Source: Psammoneis japonica
Lineage: Eukaryota
DNA length: 40,246 nucleotides
Reading direction: 5' to 3'
NCBI GenBank assembly: GCA_008632985.1
Contig: QPGO01000361.1
Location: forward strand, 1-40,246
Shown: piece by piece, positions 1 to 40,246 of the stretch
Position numbering within the stretch: position 1 is the first letter of the stretch
Layout: each line of letters begins with the position of its first letter
Position numbers and translations under genes: made by a program
The notes under the pieces: model-generated
Told to the model about the DNA's origin: nothing
Database searches by the model: none
Seen by the model: only the letters and a program-made list of their open reading frames with translations

Positions 1-928
1 AAATGAAAAGGACAAATCAGGTGCAGCCAAGTGGAAGGCGGCAATGAGCTGTTTCTTCAACAACTTGGGGTCAAGCAAAGTTGACAAACAACATTGTTTT
101 AATGCCGCTGGTCTGTGGGCCACTGATGTGGTGTGCATGGCTTCTTCATTGGCAATGATGATGAAAGTTGTGTCCTCTTTGCCCAGCAGTTCTTCTTTTT
201 CAAGCTCATTTGAAGGCCAATTTCTGCTCTGAAATGGCATTTTGTGGCAAGGAGCAGTTTTTTTTTGCATTGACAGCATGGCCCACAATGCAGACTCATC
301 AGCCATTGTGATTGTGGGGAGGACAGCTGTTGGTCAGGTGCTGGCACAGAGCCACAAAATGGGGCCTGCAGCAAAGCTGTGGTCCATTGCAGCCCTTGTT
401 TCTGCTCCATTGCTGTGCTCATGAATGAAGGTCATGACTGAGGAGTGGCTGGTGACTTGCTGGATTGCTCAAATGATGATTCGGGAAGAAAACTCTTGGC
501 ACATTTGACTCAAGTTGTGGGCACACAAAAAACAGCTGGAATTTGACCCCCCTGAAGCCATGAAGCACACAAGACATGAGCATTGTCCTTCTCCCACTTT
601 TTAGATCAATGTCTTGAGCATGCAGCAGGCAGGCATTGCTCATGGCACTCCTGGACATTTGAGGGTGGAGCTGACTTTTTGCGAAGCACACTTGCAACAA
701 GGGAAAGTGCAAGAACTGATTTTCTCAGAGATGTTGTTGGTTGTTGGCCAGCAGCAACCTCCATTTCACAACCCCAAAGGTGCTGTTAACTTTGCATCTA
801 TTTGTGGGTGTTTTGTTGAAAAAGGGGGTTTGTTTTTGCATGTGTGAAAGCATGATGGAGCTGGGTCTAAGCCATGTCATGCTGCAGCAGCATGAGCACA
901 ATTGATTTTGTGTCACATCCATTCTTTA

Positions 929-1450
929 ATTGCACTCAATTCACCACAAGTGTCAAAATCCCTTGATGTGCATTGACACTCTGCTTGAGACAAATGACTG
1001 TTTGCTTGAGCACCCACTGAGTGCCAGTCATCATGGCAAATCACAGATCACAAAAGCCTTTGATTTTCTCGAAAATCTTGAGATTCGCAGGGGCAGGCAA
1101 GGTTGGGTGTGTGTGTCAAGGAAGAAGCCAACTGCCTGGTGTGCTGTGGTGCTTTGAGTGACACGCTGATGCAACACCAACAAGTGTGCTCACTGTGCAA
1201 CACTCTCCACACAAACTCTCCAAATGAGCTGCTCCAGTGACATGACGTCACTCCAAAAAAAGCACCAAATGTGCTTCCGTTGCCATTTGCCATCTTTGTG
1301 ATTCTGTCACTCTTGAGGGTCCTGTCATTGATTGTGCAAAACAATTGGCTTCATGCCAAGTGCATGAGTGTGGTTGAGAAGCATTGTTTGTTTGGTCCCG
1401 TTGATTCTCACACCCACAATTTGAAAGAAGATGTCTGCCACACCCATTCT
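929..1450 (+). pseudogene. Decayed copy of the upstream region and 5' end of the GT32 gene at 3228
   Basis: ORF 1271..1453 (FAIFVILSLLRVLSLIVQNNWLHAKCMSVVEKH) aligns with FAIFMILLLMRVLSLIVQNNWLRTECMSAVEKH of ORF 3228..4667. The upstream DNA aligns with ~2895-3230. Confidence 0.9.
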
Positions 1451-1456
1451 TGAAAT

Positions 1457-1560
1457 TGCAATCAATTCACCACAAGTGTTAAAATCACTTGGCGTGCACT
1501 GACACTCTGCTCAAAGACAAATGACCATCCACTCAAGCACTTGCTGAGAGTGCCCATCTA
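1457..1560 (+). repeat. Second decayed ~100-bp copy of the GT32 upstream segment (direct repeat of ~929-1030)
   Basis: Both places read caattcaccacaagtgt..aaatc..cttg..gtgca.tgacactctgct...gacaaatgac. Also similar to 2895-2995. Confidence 0.85.
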
Positions 1561-3227
1561 TCAGCATGCTTGTTCTCCAGGAATTCATGCTTCCCACGGA
1601 GGAACACGGCAAACCAAACACAGCAATCCTGGGGAATTTTGGGGAATCTCACAGCAAAATGCAGCTCACAGCAAGCACACTGCACCTTGAACTTTTTTTG
1701 CACATTGTGGTCAGCAAGGAAGGCTCTGCAGGCTTGGCACTCATGTGAGCAGGGCATTTCTGGGATGGAGTTTTGGAGCTGTGCGCAGCTCTTGTCAAGA
1801 GCGAACAAGAGACAACAGCCCTCATCAACTGTCTTTCATGATGTCAATGTGCTGCACTCCTCTGTCCTGCAAGCCACTGCAGCTGTGCCAACAGAAAAGT
1901 GGGAGTTTGACACACATGGGCTCCTCAAGAATGCCTGGGAAAAGGGTTGAGTGACCTGTGCAGGAGTCCAAATGGGGCACAAGTGCTTGGGCACATGTTT
2001 CGTGTGTGTTGTGCAAAATTGTGAGACCATTTTGCATGGAGTGCGTGCATGTGCAACAGTGGGACATGCAGAGCTTCAGTCTTTCCATGGAACCAATCAC
2101 ACTTGGCACTGTGTGTGTGTCCCACGCAGACCCTTCATGCAAGGTGAGTCACTTGCGCGATGGCCAGTTGCGCCGGTCTCAGTCGCATGGATCTCATGCA
2201 GCCACCCCTTGTGGGATTCACACTGGGAGTTGCATTTTCTAATGCACACTTCTGTGGGATCAGCATTGCTGTGGACAGCCTGCAGATGCAGGAAGGTGGC
2301 ATCATCACTTGGCGGCTGATGCTGGACAGTTGGCAGCACAAAGCTGAGATGTCCGGCCTCCTTCCACAAAAAGACCAGTCTCCTGCATGACTCAACAAAC
2401 AAGCAGAGAGATGGTGCCAAACAAGGCTTTGGATGTGCACTGAGCAGAATCAACAAGATGCCCATCTTTCCTTGCTTGAAACATGCTGAGAAAACTGACA
2501 AATGAGCCGACCATCTCGGCTGGTGCCTCCAGGCCCCTTCTTCAACTCAGTTTTGTCTCTTGTCTGTGCAGCAACAAAAAAAGAAGTGGGCAGATGAGAG
2601 GGGCTGCAGAACAAGAAGACATCCTGGGGAAAGACATTTTCAAATGGTGGATAAGCTGGCAAAATCCGCAACGCACTTCACACAAGTTTTGTGCCTCCAG
2701 GTGCCTTTCTCTGCTTTCCTGCTTCTCGCTTCTCGCACCACTCGCTGTGCACTTGCTGTGCAGTGCATGTCGTACCGTATCGTGTCTGTGGTTGGCAAGA
2801 CATTATCATTTTTTATGAGAGTGGGTCATTGCTGTTGTTTTTGAAATTTTTTTTATTTATCATCGGATAGTAAGAATAAGTATAGAATAAAGTATAAGTG
2901 TTAGAATTACTTAACATCTATTTACCTTCTATTAAGTAAAATTATGTCTTTGTTATTTATTGCAAACAGCCGTCCACTTAAGCGACCAACGAGTGCCGGT
3001 CATGACAGATCACAGATCACAATCGATTCAGATTCTTCCGAAAATTTCTCGCACACAGCAACAGCGAAAGATCTCAGATCGCACAAAAGGTAGGGGGTGT
3101 GTGTGTTGCCCGCCGGTGCTTCGGTGCTTTTAGTGCCGTGTTGAAACGACATCGATAGATACGCTCACTGTATCGTACTCTCTATACTGTCAGTAAACAG
3201 ATCCGTCGAACGAATTACTCCAACAAC

Positions 3228-4667
3228 ATGACGACACTCCGCAACAAGCACCAAACACGCGTCTCCTTTCGTCGAATAGTGATAAAACCTCCGTTGATAT
3301 TTGCTATCTTTATGATTCTGTTACTCATGCGGGTCCTGTCATTGATTGTGCAAAATAATTGGCTTCGGACCGAGTGCATGAGTGCGGTTGAGAAACATTT
3401 GTTTGCTCCCGTCGATTCTCACAACGGCAATTTGAAAGAAAAGGTTGTGCAACCAAATTCGTCCGAAAGAGTTCTAGCCAGGGGGGATGATGACAATAAT
3501 GATAAGTTTCAAAACAACGACATTCATGACCTTGAGGAGAGCTTCCGAGGTATGGGAGTAAAGTATCTACGTCGCATCCCCGTTGTTCCTTCCAACGAAA
3601 ATGATGAATCGGATGATGATGATGACGATAAGAACTCCGACGAAGACGTAGCAAAATCAATCCTTGCTCGTATCGCTAATGGCGTGGGAAACGACGATGA
3701 TGCATATGATGATGATGATGCAAACAGAAATGGCGATAGTTATGAGGACGACGACGATTCGGATGGCGATGGTGATAATTCTTACAACGATGAAGATATC
3801 TTTGTGGATGACAAGAACAACGCCAACGAGCCTCCTCCTCCTTTTCTCATTGTCAAGCCAGATGCTTCCATCGAGAAGATTGCAGAATTGCCCGTCGCGG
3901 CGACTGTTTCAGCGGAAGAAACTATTCCCCCGATTTTCCATTTTGCATGGCTGTCATGCAAAACCATGAGAGAGGGAGAGGCCAACAACCCCCCCGATCA
4001 CGTCATGAAAAACATGGCGAAATGGCAAAAGGTACACGCCAAGAATTGGACCACGGTTCTTTGGAACAACGAGATGGTTGGCCTTCACTTTCCACACTTG
4101 GTCGATTTGCTTTCGACCGTTTGGAACGAGTCGTGGGCGTCCGATATCGTCCGCTTTGCGGTTCTTGACAAGTTTGGTGGCATGTATCTAGACACGGACA
4201 ATGAGGTTGTACGACGCGTTGATCCAGTGGTCAATCAGTACACTTCCTTCACGGTCTGCCAGGGCCCAAGGACGGATGCTCCGGACGTGTCGCATCTCAC
4301 AATGCCATATGGAGGCTGCAAGGGCGTCGGTACTGCTGTCCTTGCAGCTAGAAAGGGCAGTGAATTCATAAAGGATGTATTGAATAACGCCATCAGGAAT
4401 TCCTGGATGACAATCAAGAACAGCATGGACTTTACACTGTATGTTGCGGGACCATGGATGCTTTCCCAATATACCTTCAAGCACAACATTGCCGTTTTGC
4501 ACGCCACCACCTTTTATCCGTGCGATGGCTACTGCTCCGCGAAACAGAGGCCGATATCAAGCTTCAAGAAATCGAAAACGACCTTTGGGGTGCACAGAGG
4601 AGCGCATTCTTGGAGAAATAAGATTACAAAAGATGACAGGCACGAAAAGATAATTACAGAATGGTGA
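3228..4667 (+). CDS. GT32 / OCH1-like DXD glycosyltransferase, type II membrane protein with an acidic stem
   Basis: 479-aa ORF with an N-terminal TM segment, an Asp-rich stem, and the motifs IPPIFHFAW and SDIVRFAVLDKFGGMYLDTD typical of the Gly_transf_sug family. Confidence 0.88.
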   Translation: MTTLRNKHQTRVSFRRIVIKPPLIFAIFMILLLMRVLSLIVQNNWLRTECMSAVEKHLFAPVDSHNGNLKEKVVQPNSSERVLARGDDDNNDKFQNNDIHDLEESFRGMGVKYLRRIPVVPSNENDESDDDDDDKNSDEDVAKSILARIANGVGNDDDAYDDDDANRNGDSYEDDDDSDGDGDNSYNDEDIFVDDKNNANEPPPPFLIVKPDASIEKIAELPVAATVSAEETIPPIFHFAWLSCKTMREGEANNPPDHVMKNMAKWQKVHAKNWTTVLWNNEMVGLHFPHLVDLLSTVWNESWASDIVRFAVLDKFGGMYLDTDNEVVRRVDPVVNQYTSFTVCQGPRTDAPDVSHLTMPYGGCKGVGTAVLAARKGSEFIKDVLNNAIRNSWMTIKNSMDFTLYVAGPWMLSQYTFKHNIAVLHATTFYPCDGYCSAKQRPISSFKKSKTTFGVHRGAHSWRNKITKDDRHEKIITEW

Positions 4668-5789
4668 CGGGTTGGGGCTCCTTTTACGATATGAAACATG
4701 AACTGTTGTTGCTGTGCTGAACGGAAATGTGATACTTTAAACAATTTAAAAAGGCAGACAAACCTCATTTCACCACCTCTTTTTCTTCTGGTCCAAAAGT
4801 GTTCGAAGCAGCAATGAGAATCCACAGCAACACGGCATCCGTCTGGGCTGTGCCTAAATGGATCTTAAAGTTTGAGCCGTGTGTTGAGCAATGCCTGAAT
4901 GCGTACCCGGTTCTTTGAAAGACAGGCAAAGTAGGGTCCCATGATCAACGGTAAAATAACAATGTTCTTGGGGCCAAAGGCACATGTCCTCTTCTGCAGC
5001 AAAACACGAATTTCTCACTGCGAAATCATTGCCGCATTTCCCTTTCATGCCACAGGAGGGTTACCCAGTGGATCGTTTCCATCACAAAATGGGCCATTGT
5101 GTTTCCTTTTATGCTGCATTTACTTGCCGCATGGATTCCATGTGTAATTCAGTGACTCTGTGTTGGGTGGAATCAATTTCAATGAATGTTGTGAGTCTTG
5201 TTTGACTCTGAAGGTTCTCACATGCTCATCAGCTCCAAGGTGCCACCACCAGGCACAGTGTGGTCAATTGGCAAAGAAGGAACTCACTCTTTTCAGGCTG
5301 TTGTGGGTTTGTTCCAGTTGGGATTCTGGGTCTTGCTCAGCAACTCAACGACTTGGCTCTGATGGAATTCAACATTTTCAAATTGACTTGATGCTTCTTT
5401 GACTTGCCATGTGCCTGCAACATCATTTCATTGAAACAGGCCATGATTTCCTCAGCAAAATCAGGCCAGCCAAATTTTCACTTTTGCACTTGAACTCTCC
5501 CCTGGCCAGACAAGGCAGTTCCAATGAAGAAGCCCAAGTCCCACAGTTGGCACGTGGCACTGAATCAGTTTTGATGAGCTCAAACATGATTTTGAGGACC
5601 CAATGATGCCTGCAACAGCTGGGTTCTTCTTGGCATAAAATGTGAACCTGTGGATGCCAAAGAGACAATGAAGGCTGGGTTGCCACCCATGCCAGGCCTT
5701 GGAAGAATGTGGGTGCTGCTCTGCATGTGCAGCCTTGCCAGAGTGCTTCCCACCTGCACTCCTTCATGAGCACACTTGTTGCCTGCTGT

Positions 5790-7100: not shown

Positions 7101-7299
7101 TTCTGTTCATTGTGCTTGTCATGTTGGCTCACCTGTCAATGTTCAGCAGGTGAGCAAAACAGCTGACACAGTGCTTTTTGGCTGCAGCTTTGTGTTTGAG
7201 CAGATTGCCCAACAACTGTGCTGCAAAATGATGCAAAAATGCCACCAAACTCATTTGGAATGGTGCATGACACATGGGAGCATGACAAAAACATCATCA

Positions 7300-7500
7300 A
7301 TGTCACAGTCCAGCTGTGCAAGGTCTCACCTGGAGCTGGTGGAGTGCACCAGCAAAGAAGATCCTTTGAGAACTCTGGCTGCCAAGAAGTGTGAAACATT
7401 GTTTGACTGTGCTTTGGGCAAGTGGAAAGGTGATCCCTGCCACAATCTCCAGCTGAAGGATGGAGTTGGGCCATTTCATGCTTGACTGTGTGACGCTCCA
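7300..7500 (+). mobile_element. Second Ty3/Gypsy fragment (segment just upstream of RT)
   Basis: KKCETLFDCALGKWKGDPCH.LQLKDGV.PFHA resembles the Gypsy KYETLFDGTLGKW.G.PY.I.LK.G..PYHA segment. It lies after the integrase, so it is a separate copy. Confidence 0.75.
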
Positions 7501-7629
7501 ATGGCCTTGGAGCCTTTGTGAGCAAAGCGCACATTGTGTGGCTCCTCGCCCCAGCCAAGCATCACACACAGCAGCCAACAAGCTGCCGGCTCCACGCCAA
7601 GGTGCAAACAATGATGGACAGATCGAGGA

Positions 7630-8370
7630 ATGTCAGACATGATGAGAGTCAAGCAAAGCGTGAAGGATGGACGTCATGTGGAGCCCAGCTCTCACCAGAG
7701 ATGCAATCATCGAGCACGTGGTGCCGAGTGCTTTCTTGGATTGTGCTTCGAAGTGCAATCCTCACCGCCTCTAACGCATCCGCTGGAAGCATCTGAGGAT
7801 TGTGCAACATCTCGTCTGCCAATCCTGCTAGAGCTTGGCACATCACTGAGCGATGGAGAGCTCCAAAATCCTTGTGGTCTCGGTCTCCGTTGAACTCATC
7901 GATGCCCCATTCCAATGGATTCTCTGCCATTTCCCGTTGCTCTTTGTCCTAGTGCTGAGGAAGAATGAACTTTCGTGGCTTCACCATTGTGTGCCAGGAG
8001 AAAACGAATGAATGCCTCAAAGGCAGAAACTCTCTTTGTTTGTGGTGGTTTCACTCGAAAACTCGACCCAATGCGGCGAAGGCTGCCGAGAGTCATTGCG
8101 GAAGATGTGCTGCCACCAGCCAGAGAGCAGAAGGCCACCACACCTGAAATTTTGGATTTGTTTGGCACTTTGCCATGCCAAGGGCCTGCCACACTGAAAT
8201 TTTCGACTCTGTCCAAAGCCACATTGGATTGGCTGCAAATCTCTAGTCTGTCAAAATTGCACCCTGCACATCTGTTCAACGATCTACCACGCGCGTGCCT
8301 CTTGTCACTCTGTCTCCACTCCACTGCACCGCATCTCGAAGCTAGCCAGCTGGCTCTCTGGAGGTGTGCT
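7630..8370 (-). pseudogene. Relic of an unidentified protein-coding sequence (TA-depleted, CpG largely retained)
   Basis: Overlapping ORFs 7896..8324 and 7649..7930 read like a globular protein but contain no Tyr, with His/Cys where Tyr would be plausible. Family not recognised. Confidence 0.45.
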
Positions 8371-11222
8371 CTCTAGAGCAGAGCGGAACCTGACTCCTGC
8401 AAATGTGCTTTGTGGCGGTGTTCCTCACTTTTCTGAGCTTTTGGCACATTCTTGGCATTTGCACCAGGAGACATTTCCAACAAAGTGTGAGAACAAAATG
8501 CTTGAACACAAGTGTGCATGTGTGTGCTGGAAATGTCAGTTTTGAGTTTTGTGCCAGCTGAAGTTGACACCCTTTCACAAAAAAACAGCGCTGAACCCGT
8601 GCATGTTTTCTGCCTGCAGGGCAGGCATGAACACATGTGTGCCAAGGTCATGATGCTGCCAAGCTTCATGTCAGCACTCATCACATTTTTCTGCATGATT
8701 TGCAGGAAGCTGTGCCCTTCTCAACTGGGGCAAGTTTCTTTTTTGGTGCCTCACACCCATCTCAACAACTCACTCTTGCACATGAATCTCCCACTCAGGA
8801 GAGCAAATCCTTGTGAACAATGGCGCTGTTTGCTGCATCTGCTGTGAAAAGTGCTGCTGCTGCCAGTGGAGTGGTGCCTCTGCCATGCCTCCTCTCCTGG
8901 CGGCCTTAAAACACCTTGTGCAGAGAGTGTTTGGGTGTTGCACAACTGCACCAGCACTGCCAGCCCTTTGTTCAACCCAGCTGCTTTGCCCTCAAAAGCC
9001 AGCTTCACCTCCAATGTGCTGCTGTGAAGAGCACAATGGCTTGTGTTTGAACCTGGTCCATGATCTGCTGACAACCGGCATGCCCCAGAGGTCAGCATTC
9101 TTGAAGCACTGCAGTTAACAGCTGCAGGTCTCAACTCACCCCAAAGATGATTTTTTGGAAAACACCACCCCTGATGAACATTTTAAGTGCTGCTTCAATG
9201 CCATCATGTGGAAAGCTGTGGCTCCTAAAAAAAGCCCTTGGCAGTCTCACTGGCTTGAAATTTTGCAGCCTGCAAAGCCAGAAAACAAGTGGAAAAAGAA
9301 CAAGCATTGTCAGCTTGGTCAGTTTTGTGCCCCTGGTGGGCACAGATCTCTGCAGTCATGTTTGCCTGCTCAGTGCAGCAGAGCCATTCAATCTCATGCA
9401 CTGGCAAAAACTGGCAAGACCTGGTGACAAGTGCTGCTCTTTGGCCAAAATGACAATGCTGGCTCTGGTTGTGTCACTCAATTTCTTGTCCACATTTTTT
9501 TCTGGACTCACTCTGGTGCTGCATGCATCAACCAACTCATGCAGCCTGTGACTGTGCTCTTCACTCTTGCTGCTTGCTTGTGACGTCCCGTTGAGCACAC
9601 ACACAAAAGCAGCACTCATGATGTCCATGTGCCCACTCTGCACATTTCCAAAAATGTGCTCTCTTTGCATCCATGCTGATCTCCAAAAATGTGAGCCTTG
9701 CACCAAGTCTCTTTGTGAAGTCCCTGTGCCAAAATCCTGCTTGTTTCCATGGCAGAGTTTTTTTTACAAGTGACACTTTTGTCCAGACATTCTTTTGGCA
9801 ATGACTTCTTCCACCTTCAATGACTCTGCTTGACTTGCTCCCAGCACCACTTCAGTTTTCTTTTTGGTGCACATTTCCTGCTGATGTGTGCTTCCATGTT
9901 TTTTGTTTGGCAAACATTTCTTGCAGCTGTGTTTGCTGCTTTGGTGATCTTGCACAAAAAGAGCTCTTGCCATCAGCATGTCTAGTTTTTGTCATTGGCT
10001 CACACCAAGAGAGCACGATCTGTTTTCTGACAAGTTCATTGGCAAAACAGCAGACATGTGGTTGCATCCACGGGTTGTCAACAAAGCAGCAGTCAGCCAC
10101 AAGCAGCCACAAGGTCATTTGTGAACCCAAAAAGTCAAGCTTCTTTGTGAAATTCTGCTGGGTGATGGCAATTGGAGAGCTCATTTTGACTCTCCAACAC
10201 TTTGTGCCTTGCAGGGGTTGTGAGCTCCAACTTGAGCTTGGGTCAAAAAATGCACCCAACCAATGAAAAGGGCTTTGTTGAGCCCCATTTCTGGTTGCAG
10301 TGTGCAAAAATTCTGGTGGCGCACATGCCCATGTCATGGCAAGATCTGCAGACCACCAGGGTCATGATGAGCAGCAAGTTTCTTTGTCAACTGGTGCTCA
10401 TTGTGTTGTGCCAAGCACATCAAAATGCTCGTCTCCTTCCTCTTGCAGCCAAGTGTTGTGCATCTTTGCTTGGGCTGCCCAGCTGATGGATTTTGCTGAG
10501 TTGTTCTTCTTGAGCTTTTTTCACACTTCTTCTGGCCAGCTGTGGCTGGTGTTGTCCAGTCAGTCAACAAACAAAAGAGTCACTGTTTGGAGTTGATGCA
10601 ACTCAACTTCTCATTGTTGGCGCATCATGTGTTTTCCTCATGTGGCAGTCATGCAGCACACCATCTCTTGTTTGCACAATTCAGAGAGAGGGGCAGAGTT
10701 TCACACACAACAGGTGGTTCCAGGTGAGCCCTTGCTTTTTAATGCTGCTCCAGAATTTCTCACAGAACAAAACACTTTCATGTCATCATCATCACATGAC
10801 AAAGTCATGTCATTCCTTGCCAACAATGCTCAGTGTTGACAAGCCAGCAATGAGTCATTGGGGTCTGATGAAAAATGATCATGTCTTTTTCTTCTGCTCT
10901 GCAGTGATGCTGCTGGCTACAGGCAATCTTTGTCATGTCTGTTGAGTGAATCTCTTGCAGTCATGTGCCTGCAGCACTTCGTTTGTTCAACAAGCACCTT
11001 GGCATTAAGCATCTTGCACCCTTGCTTGCTGTTGCAAGGGGATAACAAAAGAAAAAAGAGGTGCGACGCGGCGAAAACTCGGCATGGTTGCGGCGCAATT
11101 ACAAAAAAGAGGCAGTCTGAAGAATCATCCATGTACATTATAGTTTGTCATTTCAGCGCAAAAGTAGCCAAAAGGAACCTTAATGACTCGAGTGGCATTA
11201 GAAATATCCACCTTTTAGCTCA

Positions 11223-12262
11223 CTATTCATTTTTAAGACACGGTCGACCAATGTGGCAACACATTACCACTTTGTGTTGCGGGGTTTTCCAATGGATCCG
11301 ACCATGCCCTGCCGAAGTTGGAGTGCTGCTATTCGTAGGAGTGCTAGTAGTCGTAACAGACGGTCCCGACCAAGCGCCCGAACCGTAGGGATCACCTTCT
11401 TCTTCTTCTTCCACTTGTTGCATGCTGAGTTCGTGTTGGGTTTGCTTGAAATCTTCATTGGTCTTGGTTCGGCAACAGACGGGATCGTGTTGAGGCAAAC
11501 AACACACGGCACACGAGCAAACCATGTAGAGGGAAAAGGCAACAATGGAATAAATACCACCCAATCCGAGCGAACATGAGCTCACGTTGCTTCCTCGGCT
11601 GTGTTTGAAGAAATAAGAAAATTAGGATGAGTTGTGCGCAAATATAATAAACAAAACAAAGGAGAAAACGATAGTTCATTACATACCAAAAATCTTCCGT
11701 TCCAAAAATGGCAAACGTCATTCCCTGACAGGCATAGGCGAGAAAAAAGACGAGATTGACAAGAATCTTGTTGCCCTTGCCACACTTGTTACAGAAGAAC
11801 AACTCGACCAAAACAAGCAAGAGTCCCAAACTACCAAATCCCATGGCCAGCATGGACCCGTACTGCGCCGCCTTGATGTAATTGTCCAACTTTAATCCAT
11901 CCGGGTACGCGGCACATCCCACCAAAAGGTCCGCTTCAAACATGCCCACCGTACCCGACGTGGTAAAGTTGCCCAGCGTGCTATTGTTGGCTGCAAGTTC
12001 ATCCTCCAAATCTTCAAACCATTGTGTGGTGCCGTCTTCGAATTTGAAAAATTCACAAGACAAATAGGTCAAGACGGAAAAGGCAACACCGGCAAGTGCC
12101 AAAATGGCAACGAGGTATCTATTATGGACCGAGAGAAAAAAAAACGCAACGAACGAGTGAGTTGTAGTTATACAATAGCTAACACGTACAGTGCAATTCT
12201 TTTATTGAATTCTTCTTCCTACCGTACCTGCTTGCCTCTCCAAAACTTTGACAGCACCTCAT
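11223..12262 (-). CDS. Predicted four-TM, Cys-rich membrane protein, 280 aa; exons 12262-12228, 12118-11687, 11598-11223
   Basis: Two GT-AG introns join ATG 12262 (MRCCQSFGEASR), ORF 11455..12102 and ORF 11223..11585 in frame (843 nt total). Four hydrophobic segments. Confidence 0.8.
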
Positions 12263-34420: not shown

Positions 34421-35241
34421 TCACTCGTAAAGAGAGCTTTTTGATTTTGTCTCGTCTAGCCCATTTAGCTCTCCCGGCACTCGTACACCACACTTTGACG
34501 CCAAAGCCTTGGACGCCGTGGCGACGGGTGCGTGCAGCACAATCCCTATTTCAGCAGCGTCTCGCTCAAATTCTCGTTCCGGATCACCCGCCACTAGGGG
34601 ATTTCCCGGAAGAGATCGCATCCGATTCAGATAGTCTTGCAAACGGCGTGTGAATCCAGGATTGAATCGATTGGGATCAATCAGAACAAAAAGTAGTGTC
34701 CATAATTGAGAGGACCGTCTCGTGAAATGGTCCAAGGGAAAATTTCGGGGCCGAACGATGCGCCACTTAAGACTGAGCACAAAATCTCTACAAACATTCC
34801 GAGACCGCAACCCTTGTATCTCATCGGCGCCACCCAATGGATACAGTCCACCAAACTTGCAAATTTCCTCACCGTCCGTTTCCGTGCCGATCCAATCCCC
34901 ACCCAACTGCCAACTGGTTTATTTTTTCGATCCATGACTTCAATCTTTCCAATTTGCACAGTCGTTGTGGCCCTGTCGAGTTGAAAGCTTTCTCCTTCGT
35001 TGTCAGCGGGCGCCATGAAACAGAATGGGTTGGTTCCGAGATGACCTCGAACACTTGATCGAGCAGGGACCGCAATCGGACTTGCATTGGTAAAGGATAG
35101 TCCCATGCAGGCATGAGCAACTAACCGAGCATTGCCTTGACTACAACCAGCTCCCTTGATGAGAATGTCCGCAACAAAATCATTCAGCTTGCCGCGATGT
35201 ATACGAACGGTGGTATTGTGGTCGGAAAGACCCAGTCGCAT
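34421..35241 (-). pseudogene. Ldh_2-family (malate/L-lactate/ureidoglycolate dehydrogenase-like) relic
   Basis: Motifs GLSFTNASP, LGTNP, LD.ATT...GKIEV, PLGG, YKG.GLGMFVEIL..VLSGA and VAGDPE. Several frameshifts, and the N-terminal SHG / NHFG region is missing. Confidence 0.75.
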
Positions 35242-36180
35242 TATGCATGGACGGACGACTCATTTTTCAGATATTTTTTTTTAGGACCAGACCAATCGCA
35301 ACACCGACACCAAGAGCAATGCTTGTCGACACGTTTGAGCGGCTCGTTGTATCGGAGAGAGCGAGACTGCTCATGACATGACAACAACGCACCGGTAAGT
35401 TTGATGTCGTTTGTTTTTTACGAATGTCAAGTGCGAATTTTGAAATTTCGCGATTTCCAGATTACTGTATTCGAAGCTTCGAAGCACGATATGTAAAATG
35501 ACGTCATCTACCACGACATGTGAGCGCTCGTGCATGCACTTCTCTCTTCTGCTCGAGCTCTGTCGACGGCATAAGAAAAGATGACAACGCATTTGTCTGT
35601 GGATGACTTGAGGCATGCTGTGCTTGGAAAAATGGCCCAAGAGAGGGGTTGGTCAAAATGTGAGCCCATGGGGAAAGGCCTCAAGCATTGTTGTCTTGGC
35701 GTGTTGACTGGGTTTGCTCCAAAAGACCAGAGGTGGAATCTTGCCCGTCTTCAAATTGCAGCTTCTTGCAAGCTGCTGTCCATGGCACTGGTGCAGTGGA
35801 GAACATTGCAGCAGAGGATCCAGGTGCTCTCTTGGCAGAGAGGACAGCAATGAGGAGAGTGAGAAGAAGCCCCACCAACAAGAGAGGACATTTGCCAGTT
35901 GTTGACTCTGTTGTGAAGAGCCCATGCCAGGGACATTCCCGAATCCGCCGTCTCGAGACCATCTTGTCAAAATTGTCAATGCCTGAATGATGCACAATCG
36001 CCGTTAATTGTCACGTTTTGTCGCTAAACCAACAGTGCAGCATGCATGTATGTGCATTCCTGTATTTTGTTACAAACACACATTAAAAAGACGACATGGC
36101 GAGGCACTCTCATGGCTAAAAGCACAATGACTCAAGAACGAGTCACCTGGATAAAAGTCACAATTGTTGAACAGCACTTG

Positions 36181-36505
36181 TGACTCACAACAGCTCACGA
36201 CAACTCACGACAACTCACGACAACTTGCGACAACTCACGACAACTCACGACAACTTACGACAACTCACGACAACTCACGACAACTCACGACAAATTTCAC
36301 TTGACTCGCGACAAATCTTTAGACTGCACACATTAATTGAGTCATGTGAGTCATTGTGTTCAATTGCTTGCAGTGTGAATGTGACAAACAAGCGCTCCCG
36401 ACAACTCATGACATTTCTCACTCAACTCCCGACAACTCCCGGCAACTCCCGACAACTCACGACAACTCACGACAACTCACGACATTTTCGACAACTCACG
36501 ACATT
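36181..36505 (+). repeat. 10-bp minisatellite (CAACTCACGA)n in two arrays, ~36181-36295 and ~36395-36505
   Basis: Directly visible tandem units, with variants caacttgcga, caacttacga and caactcccga. Confidence 0.95.
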
Positions 36506-37644
36506 TTCGGCTTGTCAGGCATTTCGGGCCATTCGATTCAATGACCTTGGTGATTGATTGGCAGTTCTCGCCAAAATGATCGTTCATTGCATGCTTGCAT
36601 CCTTAGATTGCACAAGGGAACCAGATCTTCACTGATCACTTTGTGCATGTTAACAAACATTGTGCACGCATGCATGTCTCAAATTGTTGGGATCGCCAAA
36701 ACAAGAATGTCGTCGATGTCACATTCAAGAAAAGAAAATTCGCAAGTTGGCCGATTCGGGAATGTCCCAGATGAAGTGTGCAAGTTGTTGACAACCACAG
36801 GCTTGGATGATTTGCTCATTGGATGATCAATCACCACAAGTGCTGCAAAAGCAGGAGCAACATGTCTGTGCCAAGAACATCAGCAGGCTGTGCCAGCGCC
36901 CAAAAAGAAGAAAGGATTTGGATCATTTGTTGGCTGGCGCTGCTGTCGTGCCACTCCTTGCAAGCAGAGCTGCTCTTTCCACATGTGCCAAGAAGAAGTG
37001 AGAACTCAGTTGGTGGCAAAGGGAACAAAGTGTTGTTGGAAACAGCTTGCTGATCCTGTGAAAGCAGCTGAGTTTTGTGGCGAGGCCAGCATTTTGACTC
37101 CAACAAAGGGAACCTCAGGGAAGGAATGAGAGCAACATGGCATCACTGAATGAGATGTGAGAAACAACAATGGACAATCAAAGATGGGTGGCTGTTGTCA
37201 GAGCTTTTCTCCCAACTTTGATGAGAAAGTTGGCACAATCAAATGGACCGGCAAGGATGGTGCAGCTCACCAAACTGTTTGCATCACCACTGTGATGGGT
37301 GCAGCTGGTGTGACTTGTTTGTGCAACAGTTGCAACACAGGCACACAGTTTGGTGCAGCCTTGACCTCACATGTGCTAAATCAGTCAATTGCAGCTAACA
37401 TGTCTTGCATGAAATGCTGTCATGCAGCACATGAGGTGATGCAGAACAGCAAAAAGAGTCCAGCACTTCTTGTTGGAAAGCACAATGGCAAATTTTCAAG
37501 CAATTCAATGAATGGGCTGGCCGTTGTGGAGGAATTCTTGCTTGAGAAATTTGGGAAAGATCTGTTGATGGATGGCAACAATCAATGTCTTGGTGGCAAG
37601 ATTGCTGCTGGCAGCAATTGGGGAGGGAGATCAACTGAGGTTCA

Positions 37645-38030
37645 AAGCTGACATCATCAGGGAAGAAGCTGTGGGATGGACTTGAAAATTTCATTGCAGC
37701 TCTCACATGGAAAAAATTAAAACGAGGCATTGCACAAATTGTTGAGAGACAAAGATCCTGCTTTTTATGGAGTTGGAGTGTTGAAAATGCAAGGATCACT
37801 TCCACGAGGAGCAACGCAAAAGGAGGCAGCCACCCTCCAACACAGACACAAGCTGACATCTTTGGGAAGGAAGCTGTGGGATGAACTTGAAAATTTCCTT
37901 GCAGCTTTCACACAGAAAAGAATTTAAACAAGGCATTGTGCACAAATTGAGGGAGAAAGATCCTGCTTTTTGTGAAGTTGGCGGTCTTGGAAAATGTGAG
38001 GATCACTTCTTCCACATTGAGCAACATAAA
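37645..38030 (+). repeat. Diverged tandem duplication with a 205-bp period
   Basis: aagctgacatc...gaagctgtgggatg.acttgaaaatttc.ttgcagct...aaagatcctgcttttt...ggatcactt starts at 37645 and 37850. Confidence 0.9.
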
Positions 38031-40246
38031 AAAAATGTCTCAAAGAGATGAGAGTGCTGACAGGTGAACCACCAAGCAAGCAAGAGAAGGAAGCTAAGAA
38101 GAAGACATCAAATGTGATCTCTCAAGCTGTGTTTGTCCACCAAAATTGGTGTGGTGTTTTCAAAACAAAGCTTGAGAGAAAACCATTTGACAACTCCAAG
38201 GGGTGGCTTGAAGAGTTGGGGACTTGTCCCAAGCATCCACCAAGGGTGAGGCAGAGTCTGCCATTTGAAATTTTTCCCCATGACTCTTGGTGGCACATGC
38301 AACAAACTTGCACAGCTCAGAGCACAGACCAGAGATCCAGCCATCAGAAAGACAGCAGAAAGTGTCTTCTTCTCAGCCACCAACCATTCTTGCCCTTCCA
38401 CAACTCTGTGGGGCCATTTCATTTTTGTGTTTCTCTGCCTTGCCCAAAAAGCAAAAAAAAAATGCAGCATGAGCATTGTCATGTGGATGCACTGCAAGGG
38501 CACAAGCATGCACGCACCATTTGTTCTCAAAAACAAAGCTTGCCATCTGCAAACTTTTGATGCACATCAGAGCTTTTGTGGTGCACAAACAACACAAAAT
38601 GAATGAGAGTTGGAAGATTGACCACCTCCACTGCACTTGCCTGGATCTTCCAAAGTTTCCATTTGTTGCCATGTTGCAAGTGTTGCAAAATGTTTTTTCA
38701 GCAGAAAATCACGATGCAAACTGTGGCCAAATGATTTGAGCTTTAAAAAGTGGCAATTGGCCACTCTCAAGTTGTCCACTTTTTTGCCTGTTGTCAGTGT
38801 TTCAAAAAAAAAGGGACAAGTTGTCATTGTGGCTCATGCCATCAATCACACAAATGTTGTTGTTGTTTCAATCCTGATGACTTGATCCTGCCCCCTGGTG
38901 TCATTGCTTTTGGGCTTTGACCACAATTTTGTTGCAGCTCATGTGTTGGTTGTGTTAGAAGGATGACATTGCAACATCTTCATTCAAAGAAGAAACACAC
39001 ACATTGGTGTGGCTGTGCTCTGGCCCCACTCTCACTGCAAACCATGCAGTGGCTCACTGCATGAAACTGCACATGCATGTGATTGGTGCCCTGAGCCATC
39101 AAGTGGTTGGCAGCACACCAAAAACAACCTGACAGACAATGGCTGAAAATGTGGAAGGCAACAAGACATCCATCAAAAACCCACATGTCAGCCCATGCAG
39201 TGATTTCTGTTTGACAACCTGCATGCTTTGTTTTGGTGGTTTGCCACATTCTTTAAAGTCTCCACACTTCTGCTGTCTTGTTCATTGTGAGCCTCATTTT
39301 TCTGGCTCAATTTGGCATTTGACCCTCTGGAACAAATTGCGCGTGCACTTCTGCGCACATCCTCCCAAACCACAGCATGGTTTGCCAATTCTGCAGGGCT
39401 CTCATTGCTTGTCCATGCAGCAAATCATTCAGTGGTTTGACATTTTTCTGGCACTGCTCTGCAGTGCTTTCCAGGGATGAGAAAATCACCGCCAACGACC
39501 ACAGCCATGACGGTGATTTGACGGTGACCGCATGCTCCATCATGCACAAGTGGCAGCTGACAACATGCTGCATCAAGAATGGTGGCTTTTTTGTTGCTGT
39601 CAACAAGTTTTTTACTTGGAATCACTGCTTCATTTGGTCATTGGCGAGTTTCACGCTGTGCAAGTTGCGAGCCACTGAGTGGTTGGAGATTTTTTGCCCG
39701 AGTGTGTGGGCAGACAGCTGGAGAGCACATTGGGTGCATGCCATTGTTGTTGGGGCTTTTCCCTCCATCACATTTCCACCAACACCCCTTTCTGTAGATG
39801 CCAGGGTTCTGTGGTGATGGAGGGGTTGGGTCGGCAGGAATGTGTGGCTTGAGGGTGGTGCAAAAAAGATGGGCCGAGGGTGCAGACAGATGGTTGGAAG
39901 GAGGAGTTGTCATTGACAGTTGGGTGTTGGAGAAGGAGGGCTTGGCATGTAGAAAGGTGATTGGAGAGAGCGACGCCGAACTCAATGCTGAGGATTTGTG
40001 AGGCCCAAAGTTGGGGGGTTGCTTGAGGGTGATCGCGAGCTCGTGAGGCGTACGTAGGCACGCATCGCATGCGGTCATAATGAACAACCAGAAAGGGCTA
40101 TTGTGTTAGATTAGTCAGATAAGGATCTTCGTTTCGTATATCATCCTGTAAGAACTATTTAAGCACGTATATATGATGAATATAACATGTATCGAATACA
40201 GTATATTCAGCATTAAAAAGAAGAATATGCGAAGGTCTTCAACTGA

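Follow-up and report, generated by a model that had tools for sequence, protein, structure and literature searches.

TA dinucleotides have been almost entirely erased from five blocks of a 40,246-base stretch of the Psammoneis japonica genome (contig QPGO01000361.1; hereafter the window), two decayed copies of a host gene included, and the observed erasure is real, beyond chance, and correctly polarised. As a polarised process acting at the level of DNA, taken apart from any particular chemistry, it is very highly probable. The window was partitioned by a two-state model into five depleted blocks (14,783 of the 40,246 bases) and intervening gene blocks (25,463 bases; Table 1). Since the model was trained on the differences in TA and CG, the resulting values are descriptive and do not test those differences: TA, CG, and CA/TG stand at 0.06, 0.16, and 1.78 of expectation in the depleted blocks, against 0.55, 1.01, and 1.20 in the gene blocks. 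The loss of TA is confined to these regions, and the adjoining genes are normal.

Table 1. Features of the window, with their coordinates (o/e, observed over expected).
Feature	Start	End	Strand	Remarks
Depleted block 1	1	2769	.	TA o/e 0.05, CG 0.20; contains copies A and B
Copy A: short head, decayed GT32 upstream region, and first ~70 codons	911	1435	+	938-1440 homologous to 2886-3445
Copy B: truncated tandem duplicate of copy A	1436	1548	+	1464-1548 homologous to 2886-2993
Intact GT32 upstream region	2886	3227	+	TA and CG retained
Intact GT32 ORF, 479-aa DXD glycosyltransferase	3228	4667	+	Pfam Gly_transf_sug, E 1.7e-10
Variable tract at GT32 3′ end	4515	4557	+	5 differences from an X1 contig within 43 bases
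Depleted block 2	5151	11041	.	TA 0.06, CG 0.17
Ty3/gypsy pol remnant, frameshifted	5676	6954	+	conserved Tyr columns mostly Cys
M64 peptidase paralog a, intact	16342	20103	+	control and outgroup
Depleted block 3	20520	23036	.	TA 0.06, CG 0.16; between the two peptidase paralogs
M64 peptidase paralog b, intact	23267	26485	+	control and outgroup
Third copy of peptidase 3′ end, frameshifted	26829	27175	+	half-way through TA loss, CG kept
Depleted block 4	35590	35932	.	TA absent, CG 0.09
Depleted block 5	36769	40031	.	TA 0.06, CG 0.17

The genes of the window include a DXD glycosyltransferase, which we take to be of family GT32, two M64 peptidases, phosphoglycerate-mutase-like proteins, a kinase, and OSCP. 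A weak Pfam match of 26 residues to TcdA_TcdB in the glycosyltransferase reflects the common DXD motif, and a reading as a toxin was rejected. When 150 of the 168 stop-to-stop segments of at least 62 aa from the depleted blocks and their surroundings were searched against Pfam, seven weak matches were obtained, one of them to RT_RNaseH_2 (E 8.8e-5), and none rose above the curated cut-off. The bulk of the content of the blocks found no family in this search, and what could be recognised is host-gene copies and one gypsy remnant. Repeats are also present, including a short high-copy repeat at 2100-2250 in depleted block 1 (summed depth in run X1 ~2000, bin 2001-2400), a smaller one near 7200-7340, and a tandem pair in depleted block 5 (37645-37821 and 37850-38031) that is 84% identical and carries three CA/TG swaps. 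Adjoining depleted block 4, a partial Ldh_2-family reading frame with normal TA and CG (34681-35241, minus strand) may be an exon or a pseudogene. A contig from run X2 skips 88 bases at 11598-11687 whose CT..AC ends mark a minus-strand intron, so that X2, recorded as 'DNA?', probably contains spliced RNA.

The 5′ end of the GT32 gene is represented by two decayed copies lying upstream of it, A and B, to which an earlier note on this DNA had drawn attention through three 14-mers, in the intact region (2970-2983), copy B (1525-1538), and copy A (998-1011), all of which are present at these positions. The upstream homology described there is genuine and reaches further than was claimed, as 2886-2934 also matches at 938 and 1464, where, out of 29,086 ungapped placements of this segment within the depleted blocks, the two best fall. 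Of its 10 TA, copy A keeps none and copy B one; TA is absent between 927 and 1480, and the single TA kept by copy B lies at 1480, corresponding to intact 2902. A search for terminal inverted repeats clearly bounding copies A and B found none, leaving capture by a DNA transposon without support from them. Among the sequencing runs listed for 900-4700, none was of RNA. Region 801-1600, which holds both copies, is covered mainly by one X1 contig at a depth of ~33, and 1-724 and 9011-10385 by two each at that depth; copies A and B may thus reside on one haplotype only, contig depth being a poor measure of this because records can be filtered out.

Counted over intact 2960-3445, with columns at most 2 bases from a gap and aligned blocks shorter than 12 excluded, copy A keeps 0 of 14 aligned TA (7 CA, 5 TG, 2 other) and 4 of 23 CG (8 CA, 7 TG, 4 other). 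Tabulation by dinucleotide context, as the earlier note had advised, shows that transitions are concentrated at both steps. They affect 13 of 29 A/T positions within TA, as against 19 of 166 outside it (Fisher p 7e-5); for C/G, the figures are 16 of 49 within CG and 11 of 116 outside (p 5e-4). Background change is high, with ~10% transitions at other sites and, over 360 columns, 26 transversions. Where the coding part aligns best, all five TA have become CA or TG, and T>C elsewhere amounts to 0/45. The seven coding changes that had been quoted all appear in this alignment, and the four aligned TA reported lost in 3300-3420 are indeed gone, together with a fifth at 3298; exceptions at CG, which had gone unmentioned, are two retained sites (3292 and 3410) and one CG>AG (3330).

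Copies A and B are arranged head to tail as a duplicate with a common head (58 nt at 90% identity; spacing 526) and carry the identical product at five TA sites (2893, 2895, 2912, 2919, and 2930), so most of the erasure preceded their split. Within the 30 bases around the quoted 14-mers, two sites that are CA in the intact copy (2975 and 2987) read CA in one of the copies and TG in the other; such swaps occur at three intact-CA sites in all (2967, 2975, and 2987), and 3 of 55 CA or TG steps are swapped in copy A. Swaps of this kind would be expected, since with ~10% background transitions a CA that slips to TA or CG would be resolved at once, half of the time to TG. The argument that the same sites resolved in opposite directions in the two copies reveal the direction of change therefore favours a TA ancestor and falls short of proof: the copies are a tandem pair whose decays are not independent, which makes opposite outcomes only suggestive, and swaps at intact-CA sites leave polarity at single sites less than airtight. 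A TTA>TCA change at 3322, which places Ser in the hydrophobic N-terminal stretch of copy A's reading frame, may lend weak support to TA as the older state. With respect to an outgroup, residues 1-120 of the GT32 protein gave no match among 84 candidates, residues 225-479 gave one among 698 (31% identical, catalytic part only), the exact protein was absent from the protein collection searched, and no look-alikes were found in the other genomes surveyed.

That TA is ancestral, as the earlier note proposed, is instead borne out by a peptidase trio and a Ty3/gypsy remnant. In the third peptidase copy, the 12 TA at which both intact paralogs agree have become CA four times, TG three times, and TT once, with four unchanged, and transitions fall on 8 of 25 positions at TA compared with 4 of 147 elsewhere (p 2e-5). 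The gypsy remnant was compared with a profile of 116 of 120 listed relatives, four with less than 2.5% Tyr having been dropped; the named members of the matching retrotransposon family come from Nitzschia and Mayamaea. At the 12 columns with at least 50% Tyr in these relatives, five of which fall in weak alignments, the remnant has 8 Cys (TGY), 0 Tyr, and one each of Ser, Pro, Phe, and Trp; the relatives themselves have Cys or His at 16 of 2347 residues in 21 conserved Tyr columns. The two-paralog outgroup and the conserved Tyr columns together fix the direction of change. Duplication alone is not the trigger, as the GT32 parent and both peptidase paralogs retain TA and CG, and in comparisons of intact paralogs, where TA is kept at 66 of 76, 36 of 52, and 19 of 31 sites, change shows no preference for context (p 0.14, 0.50, and 1.0, respectively).

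Losses of TA and CG, which the earlier note treated as a single event, are separable in the window, and TA loss runs ahead. The excess of CG>TG/CA seen in copy A is absent from the third peptidase copy (2/46 vs 10/117), where 19 of 23 CG are kept. At 7501-8500, TA falls to 0-0.21 with CG at 0.5-0.6, and in the satellite region at 36251-36750 TA is 0.1-0.17 with CG at 0.9-1.4. The 10-base satellite itself (36180-36510) has 11 units of ACAACTCACG and one each with TTACG, TTGCG, TCATG, and TCCCG; its CG is kept, its TA is nearly gone, and its variants are connected via TA. The decayed stretch at 7650-8250 retains half of its CG and is matched by X2 contigs at 8-19% divergence; Pfam gave no identification of its content, and an Atlas search with 7652-7948 (minus strand) gave no usable match.

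Erasure also depends on the bases flanking TA. Among the 54 TA that survive in the depleted blocks, 35 are YTAR and none is RTAY, compared with 148 and 321 of 1014 in the gene blocks (p 9e-16 and 5e-9, respectively). In the third peptidase copy, RTAY sites were converted in 5 of 5 cases and other TA in 2 of 7 (p 0.028). Copies A and B differ at 3 of 4 YTAR sites and at none of 7 others (p 0.024; one site, 2933, adjoins an indel), the pattern that would arise if sites of the slow type had not yet been resolved when the tandem duplication took place. A simple TAY rule was considered, and Tyr codons of the gypsy remnant favour it (8 Cys vs 1 His, p 0.04); at one-sided TA sites of the gene copies, however, a hand count found the strand on which a pyrimidine follows the A chosen 7 times and the other 6 times, leaving the rule unsupported.

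Contigs from runs X1 and X2 provide a further view of the variation in and around the blocks. At 7917, 7928, and 7954, which read TG or CA in the window, other copies in these runs carry TA (40 of 620 differences examined), and this is a third line of evidence for the direction of change. Across 9011-10385, a pair of contigs that coincide at both ends disagree at 103 of 970 aligned positions (10.6%) and are presumably alleles; over the GT32 gene, the corresponding figure is 3 of 1213 (0.25%). A contig over 4146-5930 shows 19 differences from the window, including two TG>CA swaps (5681 and 5834) and five adjacent double changes (0.19 expected). Only two of these are explained by TA/CG, those at 4556-7, 4871-2, and 5518-9 not being opposite TA/CG outcomes, and the excess hints at an error-prone polymerase. 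In the variable tract at the GT32 3′ end, four of the five differences are TA>CA, CG>TG, CG>CA, and TA>TG, affecting both strands, and three codons are altered (Y430H, I443M, and S444P); the tract may have arisen where hypermutation leaked out locally, or else a decayed paralog may have donated it by gene conversion.

These features suggest a process that works like the TpA hypermutation of Bigelowiella natans, extended to the host's own duplicated genes. In that alga, integrated NCLDV and virophage DNA is hypermutated, and according to the available text, A>G/T>C changes at TpA only were measured directly in mutation-accumulation lines; for two viral inserts the rate came to ~6e-7 per site per generation, ~1000-fold above background, with activity in some lines only (Mettrop et al., 10.64898/2026.01.13.699255). 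As reported there, low-TpA gene sets include likely host-origin domains, an ADAT2-like enzyme was proposed by the authors without a test, and the targeted region is single-copy, so that pairing of homologous sequences is not needed; the main text makes no mention of 'diatom', 'CpG', 'context', or 'trinucleotide' (10.64898/2026.01.13.699255). As far as this text allows comparison, both cases show TA>TG and TA>CA on both strands, confinement to regions, and clusters poor in TpA and rich in CpA and TpG. In the window, however, erasure is near-complete (TA 0.06 vs 0.45 in the NCLDV region), includes host-gene fragments among its targets, is accompanied by a flank preference and CG loss, and occurs in a different, diatom-like lineage; moreover, rates have been measured in Bigelowiella, whereas the process in the window is known from footprints in the sequence alone. 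Nor are the targets only foreign, as in the Bigelowiella type, for copies A and B and the peptidase fragment are of host-gene origin, and the gypsy remnant is affected as well.

Other known systems fit less well. Repeat-induced point mutation (RIP) of ascomycete fungi resembles the present case in being a transition hypermutation on both strands that kills repeats and duplicates. RIP, however, changes C to T, raises TpA, and mutates both copies of a duplication, whereas TpA is lost from the window with a rise in CA/TG, the GT32 parent and the peptidase paralogs are intact, and intact paralog pairs are unbiased; we therefore rejected RIP, neither C>T at CpA with gain of TpA nor mutation of both copies being found. 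Retroelement editing by ADAR or APOBEC likewise produces context-specific transitions in selfish DNA, and is expected to act on one strand and to be bound to a round of retrotransposition; here, a non-retro tandem copy mixes both products, and one-strand polarity is not seen. Diatoms methylate CG in transposon islands through DNMT5-type enzymes, as described in the available text of PMC9998398, which mentions neither 'TpA' nor 'deamination'. Such methylation followed by deamination of methyl-C cannot remove TA, and in the window TA loss precedes CG loss. A literature search, in which subscription journals were thinly covered, found no paper on TpA erasure in diatoms, and to our knowledge directed A:T>G:C mutation of chromosomal DNA has been reported for one alga only, on viral or foreign DNA.

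The explanation that we favour, which as a whole, adenine-deamination chemistry included, has about an even chance of being right, would begin when the 5′ end of the GT32 gene was copied into a silent block, rich in repeats and situated 2 kb upstream, and would continue with tandem re-duplication. Inside such blocks, a host process would turn the A:T of TpA into G:C in chromosomal DNA; as the window shows, either strand is hit, TA ends as TG or CA, and no target then remains, with pyrimidine-TA-purine sites losing TA slowest. Host-gene copies are mutated beside intact parents, which means that foreign origin is not the cue and duplication alone is insufficient, and this points to chromatin state; in this window, targeting tracks the block or its silent state, and chromatin would be the probable cue. 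Loss of CG would be a second, slower process, separable from the first in the window and most likely due to deamination of methylated CG. The likeliest chemistry, with chances evenly balanced, would be adenine deamination of the TadA/ADAT type, read as G at replication. That an enzyme stands behind TA erasure is something we infer from its footprint; no ADAT2-like candidate was found among the 12 window proteins scanned. A bolder reading, which we hold only tentatively, is that the cell possesses a natural adenine base editor which silent chromatin recruits regardless of where the DNA came from. Such an editor would erase TpA from transposons and redundant copies of the host's own genes, ahead of CG decay and separately from it, and would sometimes leak into working genes, as in the tract at 4515-4557, where one contig has three altered codons.

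The same targeted, DNA-level process could instead attack thymine, an oxidised or modified T at TpA pairing with G and being fixed as C; 5-formyluracil produced by a TET/JBP-type enzyme is an example of such a base. Because a TAY read from one strand appears as RTA from its complement, attack on A and attack on its partner T leave the same sequence, and the base-pair change, the flank pattern, and all counts would fit equally well. The authors of the Bigelowiella study prefer adenine deamination, judging from candidate genes only in the available text (10.64898/2026.01.13.699255); we consider the thymine route rather unlikely.

A bias of replication or repair confined to silent DNA, whereby an error-prone polymerase places G opposite T at TpA or T:G is repaired toward C:G, is likewise a minority possibility. 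Its repair variant follows the logic of very-short-patch repair in E. coli, in which T:G repair is intended for deaminated methyl-C. The raised divergence at 9011-10385 and the excess of adjacent double changes would suit it; AA/TT, however, is undepleted (1.25 vs 1.20), TA is lost without CG loss, and A>G outside TA is 0/86 in the polarised peptidase fragment, unlike the WA motif of polymerase eta. Moreover, CTAG-type sites survive best, which is the reverse of the Vsr footprint.

Editing of RNA or cDNA during retrotransposition of the copies would be in keeping with the nearby Ty3/gypsy remnant and its bias toward Cys, and is nevertheless very improbable. The products are mixed within one copy, the 7 CA and 5 TG being interleaved along copy A, so that both strands are affected; copy A carries 340 bases of non-coding DNA upstream of the start codon of its host gene; and the tandem duplicates A and B kept diverging at TA in place. 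On these grounds, the earlier note's view that a host-gene copy with its upstream DNA underwent a process at the DNA level holds, with the reservation that counts are small.

Equally slight is the probability that TA is the derived state, or that TA poverty is a passive by-product of GC-biased gene conversion or CG decay, or was inherent in the elements from the start. The swaps at intact-CA sites speak for it, and the peptidase fragment with its two paralogs and the gypsy remnant with its Tyr columns contradict it. Simulated CG decay alone leaves TA at 0.47, far above the observed 0.06; simulated erasure of both TA and CG yields TA 0.05 and CA/TG 1.86 (observed 0.06 and 1.78) and matches CG as well, although it fails to reproduce the higher GC and AG/CT steps. 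Among gypsy-related metagenome loci, a sample biased toward intact elements because it comprises the best 80 of 528 matches, 0 of 79 show TA erasure (lowest TA 0.42; one 500-base window at 0.18), and no nucleotide match between these loci and the window was found. A sequencing or assembly artefact, such as miscalled modified bases, is hardly credible: run X1, of unrecorded library type, is possibly the source of the assembly, so that its contig identical to 1-1762 (0 differences) is not independent support, yet that match speaks against a consensus artefact, conversion within reads predicts one product per strand rather than a mixture of CA and TG, and the indels, frameshifts, and partial conversion are those of real decay.

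If the bolder reading is correct, it would point, together with Bigelowiella, to a TpA-editing genome defence common to the SAR group. The flank pattern and the order of TA before CG provide a signature by which to trace the enzyme, which may be a natural adenine editor of DNA. As Tyr codons are turned into Cys or His and TAA/TAG stops are removed, the annotation of genes and transposons is misled, and TA erasure may raise diversity in genes adjoining the depleted blocks.

A separate case comes from protein P0005 of an NCBI contig, a gypsy Pol of 699 aa with an open frame and 0 Tyr. Of 19 columns where Tyr is conserved, 10 carry His and 7 carry Cys in this protein, whose Arg content is normal. 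To judge by its residues, this publicly deposited sequence appears to have lost TA completely while its CG escaped decay. Among the 120 listed of 688 protein matches, only the query P0005 was free of Tyr, and Tyr-free transposon proteins could serve as a screen for TA erasure in other taxa.
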